Made by a program: the position numbers and the translations under genes. Shown here in pieces: positions 18,903-45,110 of a DNA stretch of 49,136 bases. Origin of the DNA: an uncultured Eggerthellaceae bacterium (GTDB taxonomy: Bacteria; Actinomycetota; Coriobacteriia; Coriobacteriales; Eggerthellaceae); the NCBI GenBank assembly GCA_905234635.1, contig CAJOJB010000013.1:1-49136 (forward strand), written 5' to 3'. Within the stretch, counting starts at the first letter, position 1, and each line of letters starts with the position of its first letter. The notes under the pieces are model-generated. The model saw nothing but the letters and a program-made list of their open reading frames with translations, did no database searches and had not been told where the DNA came from.

Positions 18903-18913
18903 GAGATTTGATT

Positions 18914-21900
18914 ATGGTTGACGAAGCGGAACAACAGGCTCAGACGGGCGAGCAAGCGCAGACCCAGGAACAGGCGCACTCCCAGCACGCGCAGGATTCC
19001 GAGCAGCTGCACATTGGTATTGACGTGGGTTCTACCACGGTGAAGCTGGCAATTTTGGACGACGCGAATGACATCCGTTATTCCATTTATCAGCGCCATC
19101 ATGCCGACGTGCGCGCCACCATTTTGGAAGTGCTCAAGGCCGCGGGAGTCGAGTATGGCGACCGCGTTATGACCACTGCCATTACGGGGTCGGGCGGCTT
19201 GCTGCTGGCCCAGTGGTTGGGTATTACCTTTGTGCAAGAAGTAATCGCGTCCAAAACGGCCGTCGAAACCTTTATCCCCCAGACCGACGTTGCTATCGAG
19301 CTGGGCGGGGAAGACGCCAAGATTATCTACTTTGACCAGGGTATAGAACAGCGTATGAATGGTACGTGCGCTGGTGGTACGGGAGCGTTCATCGACCAGA
19401 TGGCAGCGCTTTTGGACACCGACGCATCTGGTTTGGATGAATTGGCCGCCAAGCACGAAATCCTCTATCCCATTGCGAGCCGCTGTGGCGTGTTTGCCAA
19501 GACCGACGTGCAGCCGCTCCTTAATGAAGGTGCTAAGCGCGAAGACATTGCGGCATCTATTTTCCAGGCGGTTGTTACCCAGACCATTTCGGGCCTGGCA
19601 TGCGGGCGCCCTATCCGCGGACACGTGGCTTTCTTGGGTGGCCCTTTGCAGTATTTGCCTCAGCTGCGCGAACGTTTCTACGATTCACTGAACTTGGATG
19701 AAGACCATATTATCGTGCCCGAAAACGCCCACCTGTTTGTGGCGGCGGGTTGCGCGATTGCGGGTAAAGTCGAAGCCAAGGCCGAGCGTCTTAACGACAT
19801 TATCGCGCGCTTGGAAAACTTGGGCGACGTAGAAGTGGTGCGTCTGCCTGCACTTTTTGCCTGCCAGGCCGAATACGACGAATTCAAGGCGCGTCATGCT
19901 TCTGAAGAAGTTAAAAAGGCTGATCTGGCAAGCTATGAGGGGCTGGCCTACCTTGGCATCGACGCGGGTTCAACTACTTTTAAGACGGTCCTGGTGGGCG
20001 AAGACGGCAGCTTGCTGTGGAGCTACTACACGTCTAACAAAGGCGACGTGTTGGGCACCGCCAAGCGCGGCATTAAGATGCTCTATGATGCCCTGCCCAA
20101 GAATGTCGACGGAACGAGCAAGGTTGAAATTGGTCATGCTACCGTTACGGGCTATGGCGAAGGTTTGTTGCTGGAAGCCTTGCGTGTAGACAGCGGTGAA
20201 ATTGAAACGGTGGCCCACTTGCGTGGCGCCGAAGAAATGCTGCCTGGCGTGGAATTCATTTTGGACATTGGCGGCCAGGACATGAAATGCCTGCGTGTGA
20301 AAGACGGCGTTATCGATTCTATTATGCTCAACGAGGCATGCAGTTCTGGCTGCGGTAGCTTTATCGAAAGTTTTGCAGCGGGCTTGAATCTGGACGTGAA
20401 AGACTTTGCGGCTACGGCCAATTCTGCCGATGCGCCCGTGGACCTGGGTAGTCGCTGTACGGTATTTATGAACAGCCGTGTGAAACAGGCCCAAAAAGAA
20501 GGTGCTACGGTGGGCGACATCGCAGCGGGTTTGGCTATTTCGGTTATCAAGAATGCCCTATTCAAAGTTATTAAACTGCGTGATCCGCACGAGGTGGGGA
20601 ACAAGGTTATCGTACAAGGCGGTACCTTCTTAAACGATGCGGTTTTGCGTTCCTTTGAACAGCTGGCAGGCGTGAATGCTGTACGCCCCGATATCGCTGG
20701 TAACATGGGGGCATACGGCGCCGCCCTCCTAGCCCGTGACCGTGCTTTTCGTGGGAATTTGGGGACGGAGGATTTTGTCCCAGAAAATCGAAAAGCAGGT
20801 ATTGAAGGTGATTCTGGGACAAAATCCTCCGTCCCCAAATTCCCACAGGTGAAATCTACTCTTTTGACGGCAGACGAATTGGATGCATTGGAGCCCACGC
20901 ATCGCACACTACGCTGTAAGGGCTGCTCCAACAGCTGCCTGCTTACCGTGAATGACTTTGGCGAAGACCCGAACACCGGCAAGCATCGCCGCTTTATTAC
21001 GGGTAACCGCTGCGAAAAGGGTGAAGCTTTGGCGGGTGGTAAGGAAGCGGGCGCTGCCGTGCCTAACCTCTTTGAGTACAAGGCACATCGCTTGTTTGAC
21101 TACGAGCCGCTTTCCCGCGAAGACGCTGTTCGTGGCACTGTGGGTATGCCTCGTGTCCTCAACATGTTTGAAAACTATCCCTTCTGGTTTACCTTCTTCA
21201 ATAAGTTGGGCTTCCGCGTGGAGCTGTCCGATGCGTCCACCAAGAAGACCTATGAAGCGGGCATTGAATCTATTCCTTCAGAAAACGCGTGTTACCCCGC
21301 CAAGATTAGCCACGGCCACGTAATGAACTTGCTGGAAAAGGACCTCGACTTCATTTGGATGCCCTGCGCGAAGTGGGAACGCCAGGAAGACGAAGGGGCG
21401 GGCAACCACTACAACTGCCCGATAGTCATGAGCTATTCGGAAAGCTTGCGCTTAAACATCGATGAACTCAATGAACCTGGCGCACCGGCCTTCCTGAATC
21501 CGTTTTTGCCCTATGACAAAAAGGACAAGCTGAAGAAGCGCCTCTACGCCGAACTGGTGGAAGCGCACCCCGAAATCATGGGCAAGTACGCGAAGGCACC
21601 TACGCAGAAAGAAATCGATGAAGCGGTTGACCTTGCTTGGGCAGAAGACGAAAAGTTCAAGGCCGACATGCGCGCTAAGGGCGAAGAAACGCTTGCCTGG
21701 ATTGAAGAAAACCAGGCGCACGGCATTGTGCTGGCGGGCCGTCCTTACCATAACGATCCCGAAATCAATCATGCTATTCCTGAACTACTGACAGGCTTTG
21801 GCCTGGCGGTGCTCACGGAAGATTCGGTTGCCCATCTGGGTAAACTCGAACGTCCCATCCGCCTGATTGACCAGTGGATGTACCACACGCGCTTGTATGC

Positions 21901-24784: not shown

Positions 24785-25154
24785 ATGGGTGCATTTTCTG
24801 ACAAAGTGTTCGAAGCGGTGAAGCAGATTCCCCGCGGCTACGTAGCAACCTATGGTGACATCGCGCGTGTTATTGGCAGCCCGCGTTCGGCGCGTTATGT
24901 GGGCTATGCCTTGCGCAAAGAAGGCTACGACGTCGATGTGTTCGACAACGGCGAAGCCGCCTTGTCGGCTGCAGATTTGCGACAACTTTGCCTTTGGCGG
25001 GGTAGACGTGCAGCGCAAAATGCTCCAAGACGAAGGCGTGATGTTTGTTGACGGCATGCACGTGGACATGGACCGCTGCCATTTTGCTTTTGTTGCCGAC
25101 GCCCTTGGTCGCCCGACCAACATCGACTGGGCCGCTGAGTTTGGCGAAGATTAG
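24785..25154 (+). pseudogene. MGMT-family (Atl-like, methylated-DNA-protein-cysteine methyltransferase DNA-binding domain) gene, frameshifted
   Basis: Frame A gives [43 protein letters not shown].... The conserved C-terminal ...[26 protein letters not shown]... is in frame +1 (ORF 24852-25154). The PCHRVV region is shortened or garbled. Confidence 0.65.
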
Positions 25155-25575: not shown

Positions 25576-25933
25576 CGTGCTTCCTTTCTCGTATTTTTGC
25601 ACGCGGGCATTGTATCATGAGTAGTTTTGCCCGCCTGAAGCCAGGTTATTTTGCTTGGTTTATAAATAAAGATAAAGCTCTTAATGTACGGAAACCATAC
25701 TAGGGTAAAACGCTATTTTTTACTGGCTTGGGCCCTCGTCTTTTAGAAGTTTGGCGAAAAACGACAGGTCGTAGGGTCTGTCTTTCTCGACGGAGATGTT
25801 TGGCAAGTGCAGGGGAGGTACAGTTTAGGCGCTTTACGCTTGAAAAAACAACAATTTCCATTTCCGCCTTTTTCCGTACGTTGACCAAATAAATACGCTC
25901 CATTCGGGCAAAGTCTTGTGTATAATGCAACAT

Positions 25934-25969
25934 GGGTTATGGAATTTAGCTTACGAAATTCCATAACCC
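25934..25969. promoter_or_regulatory. perfect 14-8-14 palindrome upstream of lctP, just after a TATAAT
   Basis: gggttatggaattt-agcttacg-aaattccataaccc. TATAAT lies at 25921-25926. No T-tail follows, so it looks more like an operator than a terminator. Confidence 0.4.
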
Positions 25970-26039
25970 AAGCAGTGTTTCAACAAAGTGGTTTGTTGAC
26001 GGTGAATACAACGGGACTAGGTTCAAAAGGAGGATGCCT

Positions 26040-27721
26040 ATGTATGCACTGATCGCTTTTATTCCGCTTGTTGTAGTTGTCGTGTTGATGATTGCATTCA
26101 ACTGGCCAGCTACGCGAGCACTACCCTTGGCGTGGGCGCTGTCGCTCATCATCGCCGGGGTATTTTGGCAGTTAGGTCCTGTTGACATGACCGGCCTAAC
26201 GCTAAGAGGCTTCTTGGACGCCTTCACAACCTTGTTTATCATTTTTGGCGCTATCTTGATTATGAACACGCTTTCCGCGTCTGGCGCCATGAGTGCTATC
26301 AATGGTTTGTTCAAGGGCGTGTCCCAGGACGCTCGTATCTTGGCAATCTTAATCGGCTTCTTGTTCGGTGCCTTTATCGAAGGTGCTGCTGGCTTTGGTA
26401 CGCCGGCTGCATTGGCTGCACCGCTGCTGATTAGCGTTGGCTTCCCGCCGCTAGCTGCCGCAGTTGTAGCTTTGTTTATTCTGTTTTTCACTCTTACTCC
26501 GCGTGCTAAAAAGGTTTTGGAGCCACAGTTAAGGACGCGGTTGTAGATGGTGGCGCGAATCCAGACGCATGGCTGATGGCTCTGACCCAGTGGTCCGCTT
26601 TCAACCTGACCGTTGGTTCGTTCTTTATCCTTATCATCTGCGTTGGCCTTATGTGCAAGGTGTTCGGTCCGAACAAGCGCTTCGGCGACGTTGTTCCTGT
26701 AATCCCGTTCATCATTTTCGTACTCGTTGTATTCAATATCATCTATCTGCTTATTGCTAGCTTCATCGGTCCCGAACTCGTATCCCTGGTTGCTGGTGTT
26801 ATCACCTTGCTCGTTGGCCTGGGTACGGCTCGTGCTGGCTTCCTTCAGCCGAAGGAAATCTGGACCTTTGCAGAAAAGAGCCAGTGGGAAGAATCTTGGC
26901 TGGCCAAGTCTGAAGTTTCGGCACCGAAGGTGTCCGACATGAACATCATTAAGGCTTTCTTGCCTTACTTCATCATTATTCTCGTGCTGGTTGGTACGCG
27001 CGTAAGCCAGAATGTTGGTATGGACTGGGCAAACGCCATGAAGTCCTTCACCATCGGTACTGGCGAAAGCGGTATCATCCTTGGCCAAAACTGGAACTGG
27101 GCTGTTCTGTGGAGCCCCGGTCTGGTCTTCGTGCTCACCGCTCTTATCACGGTTGCCCTTCATGGCATGCAGGGTGGCGAAGTCAAGCAGGCTTGGATTA
27201 ACTCCTTGAAGCAGGTCAAGGGCGCTGCTATCGCCCTGTTCTTCGGCGTTGCTATGGTTAACATCTTCCGTTACACCGGCATGACCAACCCCGACCTCGT
27301 TCTGGTTGACGGTTTGGGCGCTGGCGCTTCCATGCTTACCGTTATGGCTAAGGGTCTGGCCGACCTGTTCCAGGGTGCATACGTCATCGTTGCTCCGCTC
27401 ATCGGTGTACTCGGTGCGTTCATGTCTGGTTCTAACACGGTTTCCAACACCCTGTTTGCTCCGCTGCAGTTTGAAACGGCTACCATGCTTGGCATGTCCC
27501 AGGTTCTCATCGTAGCTCTGCAGAACAACGGTGGTGCAATTGGTAACATGGTTTGCGTGAACAACGTAGTTGCTGCCTGCGCTACGACAGGTACATCTGG
27601 CAACGAAGGTCTTATCATTAAGACCAACGTTTTGCCGATGATCATCTACTGCGTAATCGTTGTGGCAGTTGTTGCGGTGGCGATGGCACTCGGGGTGAAC
27701 CCCGTTCCGCTTGCCGCATAG
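26040..27721 (+). pseudogene. lctP: L-lactate permease (LctP family), reading frame broken around 26480-26575
   Basis: ORF 26034-26546 carries the N-terminal TM helices (...[32 protein letters not shown]). The rest of the permease continues in another frame (...[12 protein letters not shown]...MALTQW..., ORF 26576-27721). The break lies near the run ctaaaaagg. Confidence 0.8.
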
Positions 27722-27756
27722 GGGTCTTAGTTAAGAGAATCCCCAAGTCGCTTAAC

Positions 27757-27788
27757 AGAAGGCCCCGCTCCATTAAGTGGGGCCTTCT
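27757..27788 (+). terminator. hairpin after lctP
   Basis: AGAAGGCCCC-12 nt loop-GGGGCCTTCT, followed by tgtaagg. The U-tract is poor. Confidence 0.45.
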
Positions 27789-27862
27789 TGTAAGGAAGAA
27801 GCTGGGAATAAACTTGTTGCAAATGTATACAAGTACCCACATAATTAATAAGTAGGTAATGC

Positions 27863-27882
27863 GTTCTGTTTGGAAACAGAAC
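27863..27882. promoter_or_regulatory. palindrome GTTCTGTTT-GG-AAACAGAAC about 50 nt upstream of lutA (candidate operator)
   Basis: 9-2-9 perfect inverted repeat located between the lctP terminator and the lutA SD. Confidence 0.4.
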
Positions 27883-27931
27883 AGGTTATTTATCAGACAT
27901 GTCAATTTGGCAAAGGGGAGAAGGAGGATAA

Positions 27932-28678
27932 ATGAAAATTGCGTTTTTCCCTGGGTGCATGGTCGACATGATTTACCCCGAAATTGGTATCGCAGCCGTA
28001 AACGTGCTTGAACGCCTTGGTTGCGATCTGGTGCTGCCCGACGAGCAGGTATGCTGCGGGCAGGGTCTGCTTAATTCGGGTTATCGCGACTATAATATTC
28101 CCGTCGCAAAAATGGTTATCGATGCCTACGACCGTCCCGAATACGACCTTTTCGTTTCGCTGACCGGTTCGTGCATGAACGCGATAATCAATGACTATCC
28201 TATCGTTTTTGAGAAAGAGCCTGCCTATCTGGAACGCACCAAGAAATTGGCCGAGCGTTCTTATGAATTCACGGACTTCATCGTGAATTACCTGGGCAAG
28301 ACAGACCTTGGTGCCAGCTTCCACGACACGGTAACCTTCCACAAGAGCTGCCATGTCACCCGCTTGCTGGGCATTAAGGAACCGCCTCTGAAGCTTCTTG
28401 AAGCCGTAGAAGGCCTAGAATACATTGAGATGGTACACGCCGACCGTTGCTGCGGTTTCGGTGGTACTTTCTCTTTCAAGCAGCCAGAAATTTCCGGCGA
28501 AATCGTCTACGAAAAGTGCCAGACCATTATCGACACTGGTGCAAACGTAGTGGTAGGCGCAGACGTGCCTTGCCTCATGAACATCAAGGGCGGCCTTGAG
28601 CGTATGCGTAGCGACGGTCGTCTGGACCGCGATATCCGCGTAATGCACATTGCTCAGATTCTGGATGCGAGGGAGTAA
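27932..28678 (+). CDS. lutA: lactate utilisation protein A, (Fe-S)-binding CCG-domain oxidoreductase
   Basis: Two CCG-type motifs (VCCGQG and RCCGFGG). GAAGGAGG SD. Confidence 0.9.
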   Translation: MKIAFFPGCMVDMIYPEIGIAAVNVLERLGCDLVLPDEQVCCGQGLLNSGYRDYNIPVAKMVIDAYDRPEYDLFVSLTGSCMNAIINDYPIVFEKEPAYLERTKKLAERSYEFTDFIVNYLGKTDLGASFHDTVTFHKSCHVTRLLGIKEPPLKLLEAVEGLEYIEMVHADRCCGFGGTFSFKQPEISGEIVYEKCQTIIDTGANVVVGADVPCLMNIKGGLERMRSDGRLDRDIRVMHIAQILDARE

Positions 28679-28680
28679 CT

Positions 28681-30162
28681 ATGTCTATTCTTTATCATAC
28701 TGACGTTACCCTGCGCGAACGTGTCGCTGAATGCTTGAAGGACGACTTTAAGCACAACGCCATTAAGACGGCGCAGGAAGTTTTCTACAATAAGCGTGCT
28801 GCGCTTGTTGAAGAAATGGGCGAAGGTTGGGAAGAGCTGCGCTTGCATGCTACCGAAATTCGCAACCACGTTACCGAGAACCTGGACTATTACGTAAAGA
28901 TGTTTGCCGAAAATGCTGAAGCAAACGGCTACATCATGCACTATGCTCCAACCGACCAGGACGCCCTGGCCGAGGTGCTCGACATTTTCGAGAAGACCAA
29001 CTCGACGTCCACGGTAAAGTCCAAGTCCATGATGACTGAAGAAGTGGGCCTGAATGAAGTGCTCGAAGAAGCAGGCTACAAGGTAGTCGAAACCGACTGC
29101 GCTGAATGCATTCTGCAGAAGGCCGAATCTAAGCCTTCGCACATTGTTGTGCCGGCTCTCCACTTCAACCGCGACGCAATCCGCGACATCTTTACTGAAA
29201 AGTGCGGCTATGAAGGCACTTCGGTTCCTGAAGAACTGACGCACTTCCTGCGCAGGTATCTGCGTACCGAATTCTTGAACGCCGATGTTGGTATTCGTGG
29301 CTGCAACTTTGCGGTTGCTTCTACGGGTTCCCCAACGCTTATTACCAACGAAGGTAATGGCCGCATGGTTGACTCGGTGCCTAAGGTACAGATCATCTTT
29401 GTGGGTATCGACCGTATCGTGCCCGACCTGCAGTCCCTCGACACCATGGAAGCCCTGGTGCCGCGTAGTGCTGTAGGCTCCAAGATGACGGCTTACTTCA
29501 GCGTAGACAGCGGCCCGCGTCGTTCTGACGAAGTTGACGGTCCGGTTGAAGCTCACATCATCCTTATGGACAATGGTCGTTCTCGTATTCTTAAGACCGA
29601 CTTCGAGCCTATGTTCCGTTGCATGCGCTGCGGTGCCTGCCTGAACATTTGCCCCGTTTACAGGCATATTACTGGCCATGGTTACGGCTCCATTTATCCG
29701 GGCCCCATGGGTGTTGTTATGACTGCAAACATGGTTGGCTACGACAAGATCGACACCATGACCTTTGCCTGCACGCTTTGTGGAGCATGCGCCGAACATT
29801 GCCCGGCTACCATTCCGCTGCATGACCTTATTCGTCAGCATCGTATTAACATTGTGGACCAGGGCAAGAACCATTCCGAAGAAGTGCCTGTCTTCAAGCT
29901 GCTGAAGAAGATGTGGTCAAGCGTTGGCTTCTACAAGTTTGCCATGGGCGCTGGTGCCCCTGTTATGGGTCTGTTTACCAACAACAAGGGCGCTCTCGAC
30001 GCGAAGAGCACCTGGATGCCTGTGGTTAAGGGCTGGACATCCACGCGTGACTTCGACGGTCTTTCGAAGGACCGCTTCCGCACGTGGTTCAAGAACCACA
30101 AGCCACTTGCTGCGGAAGCTCCCGTACAGAAAACTGAAGGCACCGAAGGTGGTGGTGAATAA
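28681..30162 (+). CDS. lutB: lactate utilisation protein B, 4Fe-4S cluster-binding
   Basis: CMRCGACLNICP and CTLCGACAEHCP ferredoxin motifs plus a LUD domain. Confidence 0.9.
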   Translation: MSILYHTDVTLRERVAECLKDDFKHNAIKTAQEVFYNKRAALVEEMGEGWEELRLHATEIRNHVTENLDYYVKMFAENAEANGYIMHYAPTDQDALAEVLDIFEKTNSTSTVKSKSMMTEEVGLNEVLEEAGYKVVETDCAECILQKAESKPSHIVVPALHFNRDAIRDIFTEKCGYEGTSVPEELTHFLRRYLRTEFLNADVGIRGCNFAVASTGSPTLITNEGNGRMVDSVPKVQIIFVGIDRIVPDLQSLDTMEALVPRSAVGSKMTAYFSVDSGPRRSDEVDGPVEAHIILMDNGRSRILKTDFEPMFRCMRCGACLNICPVYRHITGHGYGSIYPGPMGVVMTANMVGYDKIDTMTFACTLCGACAEHCPATIPLHDLIRQHRINIVDQGKNHSEEVPVFKLLKKMWSSVGFYKFAMGAGAPVMGLFTNNKGALDAKSTWMPVVKGWTSTRDFDGLSKDRFRTWFKNHKPLAAEAPVQKTEGTEGGGE

Positions 30163-30878
30163 TGGCTTTGGGTAACAAAACACTTCAGGACCTGCTCGAC
30201 CCCATTTCTAAGCAGATGGGTCATACGGCTATTGCCGAAAAAGTCGAACTTCCCGAATGGCAGCATAAGCCCTGGCGTTGTACCGACGGCATGAACCAGG
30301 AACAGCTCGTAGACAAGTTCATCGAAGAAGCTGGCAAGATTGGCATTACGGTGGTGCGCACTCCTGCGGCCGACATTGCCAAGGCAGTAGCTGGCATCAT
30401 TGAAGAAGGCGTGCCAGAGGCACCTGCCAGCTGCACGGTTGTGGCAGCTAACGACGAGCGTTTTGCAGCTTCGGGTCTCTATGACACCGTAAGTGGTCTG
30501 GGTAATGTTTCCGAACTGACCATTTGGGACAGTGCCAAGGGTCAGGCCAACGCTGACGCTGCTGAAGCGGCAGCTTATGGCATTACCTATGCTGTGGCTG
30601 GCATTGCTGAAACGGCTACCATCGTGCAGCCGAGTGACGCTAACTGCGGCCGTACGACCAGCCTGCTGCCCCTGGTGCACATTGCTCTTGTCGACGCAGC
30701 TACCATTAAGCCCATCATGCTTGATGTTCTGAAGGACCTTGAAGCACAGGTTCAAGAAGGCCCACTTTCTTCTTCCATCTGCTTCATCAGCGGCCCTTCG
30801 GCTACGGCCGACATCGAACTGGTGCGCGTACAGGGTGTTCATGGCCCCATGTACATCTACTACGTGCTGGTTGACTAA
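30162..30878 (+). CDS. lutC: lactate utilisation protein C (LUD domain)
   Basis: Size, position after lutB with an overlapping TAATG, and ...SGPSATADIE... typical of LutC/YkgG. Confidence 0.85.
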   Translation: MALGNKTLQDLLDPISKQMGHTAIAEKVELPEWQHKPWRCTDGMNQEQLVDKFIEEAGKIGITVVRTPAADIAKAVAGIIEEGVPEAPASCTVVAANDERFAASGLYDTVSGLGNVSELTIWDSAKGQANADAAEAAAYGITYAVAGIAETATIVQPSDANCGRTTSLLPLVHIALVDAATIKPIMLDVLKDLEAQVQEGPLSSSICFISGPSATADIELVRVQGVHGPMYIYYVLVD

Positions 30879-30905
30879 AACTCTTTGGCTTTTAGCTAGA
30901 GTAGT

Positions 30906-30936
30906 AAATAAGGACCCTTCGGGGTCCTTATTTATT
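30906..30936 (+). terminator. rho-independent terminator after lutC
   Basis: AAATAAGGACCC-ttcg-GGGTCCTTATTT forms a 12-bp stem, followed by attg. Confidence 0.7.
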
Positions 30937-31048
30937 GTGCGTATTCTGAGGGAAAGCCAGTCCTTTCCCTGTTAAGGCGCTTTAAGAATTGTATTAAACT
31001 GTCATGCATTAGATAAAAATGTCGGACCGAATCTAAGTGTGGGCAAAA

Positions 31049-37582: not shown

Positions 37583-37769
37583 TTTCGTTGTTTCGACAAA
37601 CAACGAAGTGAATCGACATCGCATTCAATTTCACTGACTTTGTAGCCACCTAATGCCTTGAATATGATTTTTCCCGACACTGTGGCTAGCCAAAGCCCCC
37701 CGAATATGGTTTTCTTCGACTCTGCGCCTACCTGGGGTATCATAGTGTGGCTTGAGTGAAAGAGGAATT

Positions 37770-39330
37770 ATGTCTAAAGGAACGTTTTACATTACTACGC
37801 CTATTTACTACGTGAATGCTGCGCCGCATCTGGGTACGGCTTATACCACGGTGGGCGCCGACACGCTGGCGCGTTTTAAGCGCATGGACGGCTATGATGT
37901 GCGTTTTGTAACAGGTATGGACGAACATGGCCAAAAGGTGGCTGAAACCGCCGAAAAGCAAGGCATGGCCCCGCAGGAATGGTGTGACAGTATGGAGCCG
38001 GCATTTCGTGATGCCTGGGACTTGCTTGATATTACCTATACGGATTTTGTGCGTACATCGAGCGAGCGTCATGCGCGCACGGTGCGGGACTTCCTGAACC
38101 GTGTTAACGATGCAGGTTGGCTGTATAAGGCCAGTTACGAAGGCTGGTATTGCGTTCATGAAGAAACCTACTACGCCGAATCCGACTTGGAAAAGAATGA
38201 CGACGGCGAATTCGTGTGTCCCGACTGCAAGCGCCCCGTGCGTTACGAAAGCGGTGGGGAAGAAAACTGGTTCTTTAAGCTGTCTGCCTTTCAGGACAAA
38301 CTGCTGGAATTTTATGAGCAGCATCCCGATTTTATCCAGCCAGAAACGCGCCGCAACGAAATCGTGACCTTCGTGAGGGGCGGCCTGAAGGATTTGTCCA
38401 TTTCGCGTTCGACCTTCAACTGGGGCGTTCCGTTCCCCTTTGACGCCGACCATGTGGCCTACGTGTGGTTCGACGCACTGCTGTCTTACTTTACGGGCAT
38501 TGGCTATGCCGATGCTGCTCGCGAAGGTGAATGGGAACGTTTCTGGCCAGCGGCCTTCCACTTTGTGGGCAAGGATATTACGCGTTTCCACTGCGTTATT
38601 TGGCCAGCTATGCTTATGGCGGCGGGTATGGAAGTGCCTGAGTACCAAGGGCGAAAAGATGTCGAAGTCCAAGGGCAATGGCGTGCGTCCAGCTGATTTG
38701 GTGAAGGTTTTTGGCGTGGATGCGTATCGCTACTATTTCTTAAGCGACGTTCAGTTTGGTCATGATGGCAATATCTCACTTGAACGCATGGTTGAAGTGT
38801 ACAACCATGATTTAGCTAATACTTGGGGTAACTTGTGCAGCCGCGTGTTTAATATGACGGGCAAGTACTTCGACGGTAAGGTGCCCTCTGTGCCTGAAGG
38901 TGCCGCAGTTGCTAATCCGCTGGCGGAAGTGGCCGCGGGCTTGTATGCTGAATACGAAGCCTGTATGAGCAAGGTGGACTTTACGGGCGCCGCGCGCGCC
39001 GTCCAGAAGCTGGCGGAAGCGGCGAACTTGTACGTGGAAAACATGGCGCCATGGAACCTGGCGAAGAGCGAAGAAACGGCTGACGAACTGGCGGCTGTCA
39101 TGTATAACCTGCTGGAAGCTTGCCGTATTATTGCTCTGTTTATGGCACCGTTTATGCCCAATACTTCGCAGGAAGTGTTCAATCGCCTAGGTCTGGGTAC
39201 GCTGGATGATGTTGCAGACATTGAAGCGGCGGCTGCCTGGGGTGGTCTGCCCGCGGGCAACACCGTGGTTACGCGCGACCCACTCTTCCCGCGCCTCGAC
39301 GTTGACGCTATTGACCTCAACCTGGAATAA
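37770..39330 (+). pseudogene. metG: methionine--tRNA ligase, reading frame broken near 38640
   Basis: N-terminal ORF: MSKGTFYITTPIYYVNAAPHLGTAYT (HIGH-type) ... FHCVIWPAMLMAAGMEVPE, then out of frame. The second frame (ORF 38440-39330) carries TKGEKMSKSKGNGV (KMSKS). About 8-10 residues normally found between the two pieces are missing. Confidence 0.8.
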
Positions 39331-39337
39331 TTGTTTT

Positions 39338-39467
39338 TGGGAATTTGGGGTCGGAGGATTTTTCCCATGTTTACCATGCAGGACACTTCATCGTCTGTTT
39401 TTGGGAAAAATACCTCCGACCCCGAATTCCCATTTTTGGGAAAAAATTCTCCGACCCCAAATTCCCA
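39338..39467. repeat. three arms of the same palindromic repeat family (one forward, two reverse) at the metG/tatD junction
   Basis: 39338-39367 is tgggaatttggggtcggaggatttttccca. 39402-39432 and 39437-39467 are its near-exact reverse complements. The arm differs from that at 20751 at only two positions. Confidence 0.85.
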
Positions 39468-40452
39468 AATTGCAAGAACGCCGGGTGGGGACGAGCCCTT
39501 TGGTTCGGATGTGGTTACGCAGTTTAACGACGCGCTCTTCCGCTGCAAGAAGAAGCATAAGATTCGTGAAGTTCCTCCGCCTGAGCCAGCGCTTGAAGCG
39601 CCCGTGGCAGACACGCATATCCACCTTGCCATGATGCGCGACCCTGCGCTGGTTATTGCGCGCGCGGCCGTACATGGCATTGGTTTTATCTGCTGTATGG
39701 CCGACCCCGCGTCTGCGGCAAATGTGGTGTATTCCCAGATAGATAGCTGGTTTGCTGAAGCCGAAGAGCGCCTGCGCAGCATTGCGCCAGGCGTTGAAGT
39801 GCAGCTGCCTGCCTATCGCATTTCCTGTGGCGTGCACCCCCATGACGCGCGCCTCTACGATGCAGCTATGGAAGCGCAGTTGCTTGAATATTGGAAGGAC
39901 CCGCGCACGGGTTGTGTGGGCGAGTTGGGCCTGGACTTTCATTACGATTTCAGCCCGCGCGATGTGCAGCGCGAAGTTTTTGCACGTCAGGTAGAGCTCA
40001 TGCATCAAACGGGGCTGCCGCTCACTTTGCACCAGCGCGAATCGCACGACGAAGCGCTTGTCATTATGGACGAGGTTGGCTTCCCCGAGGCGGGCACCAT
40101 TTTGCATTGTTTCAACTTGGGCACCAAAGAACTTATGCCGTGGGTGGAACGCGGCTGCTATATTGCGGTGGGCGGTGCGGTTACTTTCGGTTCGTCGGAA
40201 GACTTGCGCGACGCCTTGGCGCATATTCCGCGCGACAAGTTCCTCTTTGAAACCGACGGTCCCTTCATGGCACCTGCGCCTTTCCGCAGTGTGGAATGTG
40301 GGGCGGACCTGACCATCTTTACGGCCGAATTTATTGCCGAACAGTTGGGCTTTGAGCCTGGTCCTGAGCGCGCAAGCTTCTTGCGCGACGTGTACAACAA
40401 TTCACTTTCGCTTTTGAACAGGGAGGTTACGCCATGGCAAAGCGCCTCGTAA
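39367..40452 (+). CDS. tatD: TatD family hydrolase (start uncertain; N-terminal about 45 codons overlap the repeat arms)
   Basis: ADTHIHL, ...GELGLDFHY... and ...LFETDGPFM... motifs. The ATG at 39367 lies 9-10 nt after a GGAGG contributed by the repeat arm. Alternative starts are 39376 (ATG) or 39511 (GTG). Confidence 0.75.
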   Translation: MFTMQDTSSSVFGKNTSDPEFPFLGKNSPTPNSQIARTPGGDEPFGSDVVTQFNDALFRCKKKHKIREVPPPEPALEAPVADTHIHLAMMRDPALVIARAAVHGIGFICCMADPASAANVVYSQIDSWFAEAEERLRSIAPGVEVQLPAYRISCGVHPHDARLYDAAMEAQLLEYWKDPRTGCVGELGLDFHYDFSPRDVQREVFARQVELMHQTGLPLTLHQRESHDEALVIMDEVGFPEAGTILHCFNLGTKELMPWVERGCYIAVGGAVTFGSSEDLRDALAHIPRDKFLFETDGPFMAPAPFRSVECGADLTIFTAEFIAEQLGFEPGPERASFLRDVYNNSLSLLNREVTPWQSAS

Positions 40453-40973: not shown

Positions 40974-42071
40974 ATGTATTCGTCGCTTGCTACACCTTCT
41001 GCTACGCGAGCCGTGCTGGAAGCGCATGGCCTTTCGACCAAGAAAAGCTTAGGTCAGCATTTCCTGGCAAACGACGCCATCGTGGGCAAGATTTTGGATT
41101 TGGCAGACATTCAACCAGGCGACAAGGTGCTGGAAGTGGGGCCTGGGATTGGTACGCTTACCGTGGCACTGCTGGCTGCTGGTGCGAATGTGCTTGCCAT
41201 TGAGCGTGACCCTGCACTACCTGCCGTGTTGGCAGAAACGTGCGCGGAATGGGCCGATCAGCTGACGGTACTTTCGATGGATGCTCTGGATGCACCTGAC
41301 AAGGGGACAGGTCATTTGTCATATTTTGCTCCGACACAACCTGACAAGGGGACAGGTCATTTGTCATATTTTGCTCCGACAAAGTTTGTAGCAAACCTGC
41401 CTTATGCGGTGGCTGCTACGCTCGTGCTGGATTATTTCGAGCGCTTTCCTTCGCTTGAGCAGGCAACCGTCATGGTGCAGGCCGAAGTGGCGGACCGCAT
41501 GATGGCGCAACCTGGCAGCAAGGACTACGGCGCCTATACGGTAAAGCTGGGGCTGTATGCGCAGCCTGTGGGTCGCTTCAAGGTGGGGCCTGGCAATTTC
41601 TTCCCGCCACCACGTGTGGATTCCGCCGTCATCCGTCTGAATAGGGTAGGGACACCGTCAAGTTCGAACAATGATACCGATACTTTTTCCGGCATCGCCG
41701 CTCAGGTTTCTTCGGACATGCAGGATATCAACGCGCTACTGGCGTCCCTTACGCCTGAAGAGTGTGCCGCCGCCGCAACCATGGCAGATGCTGCATTCGC
41801 CAACCGTCGCAAAACACTGGCAAATTCTTGCAAGACTTACTTCTCGGGTATCCAACAACTCCCATTTGTAGGGCAGGACTCCTTAGATTCCGTCGCCCCT
41901 ACAGCCCTTGAACAATGCCCGCCTCTCACGGGCGTTCAGATTGTTGAAGCCCTGCCTGCCATATTCGAAGCTGCTGGCATCGACCCTTCGGCCCGCGGTG
42001 AAACACTTGCTCTCACTAATTTCATCACCCTCGGCAAGGAACTTCTAAAACTCTATTCTTGCATTACGTAA
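40974..42071 (+). CDS. rsmA: 16S rRNA (adenine1518/1519-N6)-dimethyltransferase with internal duplication and long C-terminal extension
   Basis: KKSLGQHFL, VLEVGPGIGTLT and FVANLPYAVA motifs. Confidence 0.9.
   Translation: MYSSLATPSATRAVLEAHGLSTKKSLGQHFLANDAIVGKILDLADIQPGDKVLEVGPGIGTLTVALLAAGANVLAIERDPALPAVLAETCAEWADQLTVLSMDALDAPDKGTGHLSYFAPTQPDKGTGHLSYFAPTKFVANLPYAVAATLVLDYFERFPSLEQATVMVQAEVADRMMAQPGSKDYGAYTVKLGLYAQPVGRFKVGPGNFFPPPRVDSAVIRLNRVGTPSSSNNDTDTFSGIAAQVSSDMQDINALLASLTPEECAAAATMADAAFANRRKTLANSCKTYFSGIQQLPFVGQDSLDSVAPTALEQCPPLTGVQIVEALPAIFEAAGIDPSARGETLALTNFITLGKELLKLYSCIT
41295..41384 (+). repeat. 45-bp in-frame tandem duplication inside rsmA
   Basis: cctgacaaggggacaggtcatttgtcatattttgctccgaca occurs twice back to back (41295-41339 and 41340-41384), encoding PDKGTGHLSYFAPT(Q/K) twice. 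Confidence 0.9.
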
Positions 42072-43639: not shown

Positions 43640-43763
43640 GTAGGGTTTAAAAAACGACGTTGCAGATATCCTGCTCAGATTCAAGAGTTTAACAAGTCAG
43701 ATTCCTTGAGATAATTAGTTGTTAATTACCTCAAGTGGTTCCCGAACTGCCCTACCTATATAC

Positions 43764-43832
43764 TTTGGTAAAGTCTACTTACAAATTTTGGTTTACTCTA
43801 CTTACAAATTCTGGTAAAGTCTACTTACTAAT
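43764..43832 (+). repeat. three direct 23-nt repeats (iteron-like) immediately upstream of the ATPase gene
   Basis: tttggtaaagtctacttacaaat, tttggtttactctacttacaaat and tctggtaaagtctacttactaat, then a partial tttggttt. Confidence 0.85.
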
Positions 43833-43853
43833 TTTGGTTTTTTTGGGGGTTGT

Positions 43854-45110
43854 ATGATTCAGCGCGAATTGGAAGCCTGGTTACGCAATCTTGCTGGGTG
43901 GTTTCCTATTGTATCGGTAACAGGGCCGCGCCAAAGTGGTAAGTCTACATTGGTCCAAGCTGCTTTTTCAGAATATGACTGTATCAATTTGGAAGACCCA
44001 GCAACGCGCGAGCGTGCAGTGGCTGATCCGTCGGGGTTTGTTGCTCATTTATCAAATCAGACCATAATAGATGAAGCCCAGTATGTTCCGAACTTGTTTC
44101 CAGCGCTTCAAGCTAAAGCAGATCAAGAGAAAAAGAAGGGGCAATTCATTCTTACTGGATCACAGAATTATCTTCTGTCATCCTCCATCAAAGAATCTCT
44201 TGCAGGGCGGGTAGGTATTGCTCGTCTTTTGCCCCTTTCATATTTGGAGATAAAAAGCGCGTACAGCGATATTTTGTTTGAACAGGTAATGCTGCAGGGT
44301 TCCTATCCTGGTCTATATGCAGACAATATTCCTGTAAACATTTTTTATTCCAATTATATTGACACCTATATTACGCGCGATGTGGTAGGGCTCCTTGACG
44401 TTCGCAAAGAATCACAATTTCGAGCATTCCTGAAAGCCTGCGCGGCGCGTGTTGGTAATCTCGTGAACTATTCAGACCTATCTCGCGATGTTGGAATTGC
44501 ATTGCCGACTGTAAAAGATTGGCTTTCAATTCTCGAAGCGAGTTATGTAGTCAAGCAGTTGCCTGCGTATTCGCGTAATATTTCAAAACGTGTTGCGAAG
44601 TCTCCAAAATTGTTTTTCTACGACACTGGGCTTCTGTGTTATCTGCTTGAACTCACAAATGTTAAAAGTCTCTATTCCAGCCCTTATTACGGTGCCGTGT
44701 TTGAAAACTACATTATTTCAGAACAGTTCAAGAATCGTTTCAATAGCTTGCTGGTCCCTGATATCTATTTCTATCGCGATGACAGCAAAATCGAGGTGGA
44801 CATGATTGATGTGACCGAAGCAAAAGAAGCAATAATATGCGAGATCAAGTCAAGTCAAACTTTCAGCCAATCCTTTGTACGTAATGTTAATAGAGTCGTA
44901 AATGTATCTGGACTAACCGAGGTGCTCCCTGCTGTTGTGTATGGGGGGGAGGGTACTTTCGAATGCAATGATGTTTATATTTATGGCATCAATGAGTGGC
45001 TGTTAAAAAGGCATGATAAAGAATTGAGCGGTATGTCGTTTACGATTGATGGTCGAAGGTATCGCTGCGAATGGGCTATTACCGACCGTGATAGATACAA
45101 GAAGGCATAG
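43854..45110 (+). CDS. AAA-family ATP-binding protein (AAA_14 N-terminal domain plus DUF4143-type C-terminal domain)
   Basis: Walker A GPRQSGKST and Walker B-like IIDEAQ. The C-terminal EVDMID...EIKSS has restriction-endonuclease-like D..E.K spacing typical of DUF4143 proteins. Confidence 0.85.
   Translation: MIQRELEAWLRNLAGWFPIVSVTGPRQSGKSTLVQAAFSEYDCINLEDPATRERAVADPSGFVAHLSNQTIIDEAQYVPNLFPALQAKADQEKKKGQFILTGSQNYLLSSSIKESLAGRVGIARLLPLSYLEIKSAYSDILFEQVMLQGSYPGLYADNIPVNIFYSNYIDTYITRDVVGLLDVRKESQFRAFLKACAARVGNLVNYSDLSRDVGIALPTVKDWLSILEASYVVKQLPAYSRNISKRVAKSPKLFFYDTGLLCYLLELTNVKSLYSSPYYGAVFENYIISEQFKNRFNSLLVPDIYFYRDDSKIEVDMIDVTEAKEAIICEIKSSQTFSQSFVRNVNRVVNVSGLTEVLPAVVYGGEGTFECNDVYIYGINEWLLKRHDKELSGMSFTIDGRRYRCEWAITDRDRYKKA

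Follow-up and report, generated by a model that had tools for sequence, protein, structure and literature searches.

Does a palindrome that sits in frame within the coding sequence of a giant enzyme represent a mobile repeat that has become part of a protein, or was it made where it now stands? This question is raised by a 49,136-nt stretch of DNA from an uncultured Eggerthellaceae bacterium (contig CAJOJB010000013.1 of assembly GCA_905234635.1; hereafter the window). Here, a perfect 96-nt palindromic unit lies within a gene that encodes two BcrAD_BadFG ATPase (activase) modules fused to DUF2229, which is related to 2-hydroxyacyl-CoA dehydratase (locus 1), and related arms recur ~18.5 kb away at the start of tatD (locus 2). 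We consider it likely that both loci belong to a species-specific family of non-autonomous hairpin repeats, with one copy lodged in a linker of the enzyme and a second cluster placed at the tatD start.

The 96-nt palindrome and the linker that carries it

At locus 1, a repeat search delimited two 35-nt arms that are 100% complementary and separated by 26 nt; their complementarity ends at 20750 and 20847 and does not include the flanks. The total length of 96 nt agrees with the first-pass annotation of this DNA, while the 34-nt arms and the 28-nt loop given there had to be adjusted. The unit amounts to 32 codons, keeps the reading frame, and on translation yields the peptide that had been predicted for it. 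It occupies residues 615-646 of a longer open reading frame (ORF) form starting at 18908 (the database form of the protein begins at ATG 18914; Table 1) and begins 6 residues past the end of the second ATPase module. Pfam places this module at 349-609 and DUF2229 at 744-974, and the insert indeed lies in a variable linker, modelled as coil, between the ATPase module and the next segment, as had been proposed. When folded as RNA, the stretch formed a single hairpin of -71.7 kcal/mol (shuffled sequences, -30.8 +/- 3.4 kcal/mol; z = -12; 0 of 200 as stable). Rfam gave no match in the whole window, and a terminator scan found no terminator at either locus.

The 96-nt element is genuine. Together with its flanks, it is base-for-base identical in L042 and L043, 2 independent conspecific assemblies that come from other samples, share 99.6-99.9% identity with the window, and both encode the near-identical protein P0123; since these assemblies carry the same 96 nt and the same flanks, an assembly artefact is excluded. 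The intact 1604-aa ORF with its 32 in-frame codons was thus seen in 3 assemblies. The insert most likely passes into the mRNA and the protein, its 32 residues forming a surface loop that would hardly affect the enzyme.

In an alignment of 119 Eggerthellaceae homologues covering the region from QGGTFLN to GNRCEKG, both flanks are almost invariant and the stretch from ...ALLARDR to STLL...PTHRT is hypervariable. The distance from ARDR to PTHRT varies between 18 and 110 residues (median 28, 117 homologues); most homologues have short linkers without an insert, and none of the columns from R268 to L309 of the alignment (A1) is conserved. Furthermore, in an AlphaFold2 model of residues 345-990, which is of moderate quality with a mean predicted local distance difference test (pLDDT) score of 69, model residues 275-301, which span the insert, are coil with a pLDDT below 50. 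The insert is therefore predicted to sit in a tolerant, disordered interdomain linker connecting the activase and DUF2229 halves, in line with the earlier suggestion that it is tolerated inside a giant enzyme. The simplest reading is that the unconstrained linker acts as a filter, in that in-frame, stop-free insertions survive only there within the gene.

The state of this site in close relatives confirmed that the 32 residues are specific to the lineage. In the homologue P0003 (L039; 87% amino acid identity), the site is empty (ARDR-AQANTA-STLL) and lacks any inverted repeat. P0001 (L038; 94%), from the closest other species, has after AFRG an unrelated palindrome that has decayed (43-nt arms, 77% complementarity), the left arm starting at the DRAFRG codons and the right arm being an inverted copy of those codons. 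The insert of P0004 (L041; 86%) follows ASRG, is homologous to the decayed one of L038 as judged by direct reading of the sequence, and is flanked by a direct ARDRA...ARDRA duplication, while P0002 (L040; 91%) has a different, third insert that is AT-rich. Because the linkers of these nearest relatives differ and ~78 kb of their DNA contain no arm of the window's family, the 32 residues are species-specific and must have been gained after the split from the nearest sampled relatives. This single site presents a natural series (empty, filled with a perfect young palindrome, filled with decayed ones, or occupied by unrelated repeats), which can be used for studying how such insertions enter proteins and then decay.

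Two homologues that are more distant and have long linkers extend this picture at the DNA level. The linker of L045 contains an inverted repeat with 58-nt arms (79% complementary), the left arm of which begins at the GAALLARDR codons. It also contains a 76-nt piece from a different dispersed family, which shares 76% identity with repeats found between genes on the same contig (4369-4443 and 14282-14355). In L044, the linker holds 3 tandem units of ~78 nt together with inverted repeats. As judged from these comparisons, the activase-DUF2229 linker seems to have captured repeats repeatedly across the Eggerthellaceae. The left arms of several linker palindromes in relatives begin in the conserved RDR codons, and for those palindromes a local origin by template switching is therefore kept as a live rival.

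It should also be noted that the linker peptide of P0100, the homologue from Arabiibacter massiliensis (...SCHPERAQRVEGS...PALRASAQDDN...), contains CHPE and AQDDN, which resemble the 2 arms of a further translated palindrome, suspected here from the peptide. Dense clusters of GC-rich dispersed and inverted repeats are found in intergenic regions or at contig ends of L045 (4087-4493 and 14269-15005) and L044 (1-132 and 20028-20072), and we found no description of these repeat families for Eggerthellaceae.

A second cluster of arms at the start of tatD

The related arms that the first-pass annotation had placed at 39338-39467 are real: 1 in plus orientation and 2 tandem ones in minus orientation, each matching the gene arms with 90-96% identity across the aligned parts. 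Their overlap with the start of tatD had been overlooked. The cluster comprises 134 nt (39336-39469) between metG and tatD, with the left arm starting 6 nt downstream of the metG stop codon (39328-39330) and the conserved tatD codons following directly after the cluster (TPGGDEPFGSDV from 39478). It folds as RNA with -65.5 kcal/mol (z = -8.4) and is base-for-base identical in 3 conspecific assemblies from other samples (L046, L047, and L048).

The position is free of the repeat both in L049, the closest other species (TatD of 334 aa, 94% identical), and in a further relative (L050; 84%), where a short spacer leads to a GTG start codon in each case. In L049, the spacer measures 47 nt and includes a GAGGGA motif of its own, and the protein begins with VVDEHTEVLRTPGG; in the window, the repeat cluster occupies the place of this spacer, the start codon, and ~9 codons, all of which are missing. 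Comparison with L049 over the 50 codons past the cluster revealed 18 differences, 17 of them at third codon positions, including all 5 of those that lie upstream of the next possible start. Because the differences fall at third codon positions, the stretch past the cluster would be translated, and since this holds right after the cluster and before the next possible start, initiation is expected to occur inside the cluster. The left arm contains a Shine-Dalgarno-like GGAGGA motif 9 nt upstream of ATG 39367, the start codon that was picked by gene callers in all 3 conspecific assemblies (361 aa compared to 333-334 aa in relatives). The comparison therefore makes it very likely that locus 2 supplies the initiation region of tatD together with ~37 N-terminal residues (predicted repeat-encoded peptides MFTMQDTSSSVFGK and NTSDPEFPFLGK), with ATG 39367 as the probable start and TTG 39436 as the other candidate. 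The cluster thereby appears to have replaced the native ribosome-binding site, start codon, and first codons of tatD; among cases in which a repeat takes over a native initiation region, this one is fairly clean.

A weak promoter-like match was noted at 39302-39331 in the 3' end of metG (TTGACG, 18 nt, TG-AATAAT; 10 of 12 positions, by consensus match alone). It is the sole such match, and the transcription start predicted from it would fall at about the point where the left arm of locus 2 begins.

Table 1. Coordinates in the window of the two repeat loci and of the genes that they enter.
Feature	Coordinates	Strand	Basis
Host gene of locus 1, BcrAD_BadFG x2 + DUF2229 fusion, 1604 aa	18914..23728	+	ATG-started form P0121, public protein collection
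Left arm of the in-frame palindrome, GTGGGAATTTGGGGACGGAGGATTTTGTCCCAGAA, encodes (R) + 11 residues	20751..20785	+	Repeat search and translation
Loop of the gene copy, 26 nt, unrelated to the locus 2 loop	20786..20811	+	Sequence reading and repeat search
Right arm, exact reverse complement of the left arm, encodes 11 residues	20812..20846	+	Repeat search and translation
Locus 2 left arm, with GGAGGA at 39353-39358	39336..39366	+	Sequence and repeat search (match 39338-39366)
Locus 2 loop, 31 nt, first base is that of ATG 39367	39367..39397	+	Conspecific gene calls
Locus 2 first right arm, inverted, falls in frame inside the tatD N-terminus as called	39398..39432	-	Repeat search, alignment
Locus 2 second right arm, tandem with 35-nt period, abuts conserved tatD codons	39433..39469	-	Repeat search (match to 39467)
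tatD as called in conspecific assemblies, 361 aa, first ~37 residues repeat-encoded	39367..40452	+	Gene calls, comparison

Taken over both loci, the family comprises 5 arms with the consensus TGGGAATTYGGGGWCGGAG, and a 21-nt core matches 5 times in the window compared to 0.00 matches expected from shuffles. The arms differ between the loci in a compensated manner: both arms of locus 1 carry GGGGACGGAG and all 3 arms of locus 2 carry GGGGTCGGAG, and the locus 1 arms have an extra G near the inner end of both. As the arm changes are compensated and the loops of the two loci are unrelated, neither locus was copied directly from the other, and the unrelated loops speak for separate source copies. 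Furthermore, all 5 arms are stop-free in six frames. Freedom from stops on both strands was seen in 2% and 0.2% of composition-matched shuffles for the 2 arms considered, and in 11% of window 35-mers, for which the mostly coding nature of the window forms the background; this signal is suggestive rather than strong.

Dispersed repeat, local duplication, or functional hairpin

On the likely reading that the two loci belong to one repeat family, the 96-nt unit would be a copy of a small non-autonomous hairpin repeat with inverted arms of ~30-35 nt and a variable loop. After the split from the closest sampled relatives, a copy would have landed in the disordered activase-DUF2229 linker, where it would survive because its length is a multiple of three, its arms are stop-free in six frames, and the linker tolerates almost any length or sequence. 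The second cluster, with 1 left arm, a loop, and 2 right arms, would have replaced the native 5' end of tatD and would then most likely provide the ribosome-binding site, the ATG, and the ~37 N-terminal residues. We infer that the family has been mobile by some mode of movement and that the insert is nearly neutral; the latter is an assumption, since a perfect RNA duplex of 35 bp within an mRNA might come at a cost, e.g., as a substrate of RNase III.

Besides this potential cost, several results weigh against a dispersed family. Only 2 loci are known for it, both from the ~51 kb of DNA of this species that were examined. Single arms folded as RNA reach -2.9 to -4.6 kcal/mol (z = -0.3 to -1.5) and are not stable hairpins, the structural unit being the doublet, as in a MITE (miniature inverted-repeat transposable element) or a long hairpin. 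No target-site duplication was found by direct reading at locus 1 (flanks ...GCTTTTC and AGGTGAAA), nor at locus 2, where an AATTG near both ends does not fit a simple duplication when compared with the empty site of L049. An exact-pattern scan of GTDB species representatives returned 37 single matches and no family member. A strict pattern gave 0 matches in metagenomes, and a looser one gave at least 120 single matches, none of which reached an arm or had a family-like partner; scans of viral contigs and BLAST searches against plasmids and phages likewise revealed no family member. When 5.8 billion protein clusters were queried with the six-frame peptides, no match at E <= 10 was obtained; according to a local control, an identical copy in frame within a cluster representative would score approximately E = 1e-10 in this search, which is blind to single arms and to non-representative cluster members such as the window's own protein. 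Finally, no transposase-type Pfam family is listed among the genes of L042 and L046 (~8.9-51 kb) or among 15 scanned window ORFs, including those at 0.4-8.1 kb, although a REP-associated tyrosine transposase (RAYT; REP, repetitive extragenic palindrome), being single-copy, could lie anywhere in the genome; a parent insertion sequence was not found within the window either. Of the earlier proposal of a dispersed family rather than a local hairpin, the part that the repeat has relatives elsewhere is supported by a second locus with 3 arms, whereas the part that would make it a genome-wide, mobile family gained no further member from any of the collections searched, so that the distribution of the family appears narrow.

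The GTDB matches themselves are mostly coding sequence of PKD domains (WEFGDG), together with a few unrelated REP-like hairpins from metagenome-assembled genomes (MAGs) of Burkholderiales and Terriglobia. The hairpins of L001, L006, L023, L024, and L029 share the core GAATTYGGGGACGGAG with the window arms and otherwise differ (GGGGACGGAGCCC...GGGCTCCGTCCCC); the shared core may reflect convergence or chance.

An unlikely alternative is a local origin, in which the linker would be a hotspot of recombination or template switching, inverted duplications would be made by fold-back (quasipalindrome) synthesis or ectopic gene conversion, and the likeness to the tatD locus would go back to one templated repair event rather than to a dispersed family. 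Quasipalindrome template-switch mutagenesis is a known process and could explain both the perfect arms of locus 1, with their 35/35 pairing that fits templated correction, and the palindromes of relatives with inverted host flanks, which reach into host coding sequence (DRAFRG in L038, GAALLARDR in L045). The direct duplication in L041 and the lack of a target-site duplication, a transposase, and a third locus in our searches are in keeping with it as well. However, the window arms stop short of their flanks, the unrelated loops and compensated changes mean that neither locus is a simple copy of the other, locus 2 already has 3 arms, and L045 demonstrates the entry of genuine dispersed repeats into the linker. 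Template switching leaves related arms 18.5 kb away with different loops unexplained.

Slightly less probable is a more far-reaching version of the repeat-family reading, according to which this species, or perhaps the Eggerthellaceae as a whole, would harbor a second system resembling the Rickettsia palindromic elements (RPEs). Palindromic repeats shaped to lack stops in six frames would then routinely enter coding sequence as protein segments and translation starts, with the linker as a recurrent landing pad across the Eggerthellaceae, and would be moved by some enzyme.

We regard it as improbable that selection maintains the hairpin because it does something as RNA or DNA. At locus 1, such a hairpin might cause ribosome pausing at the domain boundary or provide an RNase III cut that uncouples the halves of the enzyme, and at locus 2, it might sequester the Shine-Dalgarno sequence of tatD and tie tatD translation to ribosomes finishing metG. 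The stability of both stems, the arm differences that preserve pairing, the recurrence of different palindromes in the same linker in several lineages, and the GGAGGA inside the locus 2 left arm are all compatible with such roles. Nevertheless, a close homologue lacks any insert and most homologues have short linkers, the inserts of relatives are unrelated and in part decayed (77-79% complementarity), a pattern that fits tolerance rather than selection, and perfect pairing is expected of a young copy; the absence of an Rfam match and of a terminator-like tail speaks against a function as well. Lastly, an assembly or chimera artefact of the MAG, which might be suspected from local oddities of the window that are absent from conspecific assemblies (a 26-nt deletion in metG and a 53-nt replacement at 24918-24971), is effectively refuted by the base-for-base identity of locus 1 in L042/L043 and of locus 2 in L046/L047/L048.

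Checking locus 1 in other assemblies mattered because of these defects. The metG gene is split by a frameshift at 38630-38640 (ORFs 37752-38696 and 38440-39330), whereas L046-L048 have 26 extra bases (tgcgtgtttggtcatggctacctgct) just before KMSKS and an intact 528-aa MetG; the contigs of L047 and L048 both begin within metG, ~20 nt or less from this point. The frameshift is probably an assembly error in the MAG. At 24918-24971, a 53-nt segment takes the place of 73 nt that are found in L042, L043, and L038 and encode the active-site region (PCHRV) of an MGMT-like protein (DNA_binding_1); the window version resembles part of a response-regulator receiver domain and is probably a chimeric assembly.

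Some further features of the window were noted as well. Inside RrnaAD/rsmA, 2 perfect 43-nt copies lie 2 nt apart at 41294-41381 (45-nt period), compared to a single copy in L048 (350 aa versus 365 aa), i.e., an in-frame duplication of 15 residues is polymorphic among strains. Approximately 4 tandem 23-nt units (CTACTTACAAATTTTGGTAAAGT-like) at 43752-43840 immediately precede the gene for an AAA_14/DUF4143 ATPase (43854-45110) and might serve as an operator or iteron array; they are part of a lower-GC island at 42-49 kb that is rich in PIN, HicA, and HTH genes and is followed by a ThsB-TIR gene in L046. Furthermore, the lactate permease and lactate-utilisation (CCG, LUD) genes at 25857-30942 are 95% DNA-identical to 16715-21813 of L038, and since the flanks are ~78-88% identical, this suggests recent recombination or transfer of the lactate block between the window species and a sister species.

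Relation to known palindromic repeats

Several familiar element types were considered and set aside: a CRISPR array, since 2 tandem arms have no spacer between them; an intron or intein, since the element is too small; and a classical REP unit, since single arms do not fold. The first-pass annotation had held that in-frame colonisation of ORFs by palindromic repeats is well established only in Rickettsia and a few further lineages, which overstates the case. What characterises RPEs above all (Ogata et al. 2000, 2002) is palindromic repeats placed in frame, with dozens per Rickettsia genome according to the accounts given in PMC10969869 and PMC3733652. In addition, intragenic dimers of GTAG- or CGTC-tagged REPs encode 20-30 aa, including N-termini, in Opitutus, Thauera, and others (PMC3733652), and in-frame fusions of MITEs with ORFs have been described as not unusual (PMC10969869; for the QMITEs of Coxiella, PMC5896051). 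For the Eggerthellaceae, literature searches that bore on this lineage revealed no description of such repeats.

With RPEs, as far as the published summaries describe them, the element shares a palindromic unit of ~100-150 bp (here 96 nt, and 134 nt for the locus 2 cluster) and in-frame insertion into otherwise normal genes with a peptide at tolerant positions, also at N-termini. It is set apart by description, rather than by sequence comparison, in that its host belongs to the unrelated Eggerthellaceae (Actinomycetota), and 1 internal and 1 N-terminal case contrast with the dozens of copies that those summaries give per Rickettsia genome. The RPE-type CGTC tag (PMC3733652) is not kept: CGTC occurs in the gene copy alone (CTCCGTCCCC), whereas all 3 arms of locus 2 read CTCCGACCCC, i.e., CGAC instead of CGTC.

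REP dimers or REPINs (REP doublets forming hairpins; PMC3733652, and for REPIN/RAYT, PMC3116915 and PMC3337134) likewise consist of 2 inverted units with a short spacer that form a long hairpin, encode 20-30 aa when intragenic, occur in clusters with extra units, and leave no target-site duplication. In contrast to these, the single arms described here are not stable stem-loops, no arm has GTAG, and no RAYT was seen among the genes examined; moreover, REP/REPIN units usually have GC-rich stems of 8-9 bp, whereas the present arms are AT-rich at both ends. MITEs (QMITE1/2 of Coxiella, PMC5896051; ERIC, BOX, and the Anabaena MITEs, PMC10969869) match in being short non-coding hairpins with terminal inverted repeats, in a size within 50-500 bp without coding capacity of their own, and in that some lie in or across ORFs, to which they contribute residues, start or stop codons, or promoters. 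They differ in that here no target duplication and no parent insertion sequence were found, and at 96 nt the element is at the small end and almost all stem.

In protein clusters, such inserts add to the variation in length and can go unnoticed within clusters of 90% identity, and the host family, i.e., the 2-hydroxyacyl-CoA dehydratase activase fusions, is often annotated automatically. The element behaves like known coding-compatible palindromic repeats, RPE-like or MITE-like, and represents known behavior rather than a new kind of system, while it extends protein-coding palindromic repeats to the Actinomycetota of gut and rumen in the form of the Eggerthellaceae.

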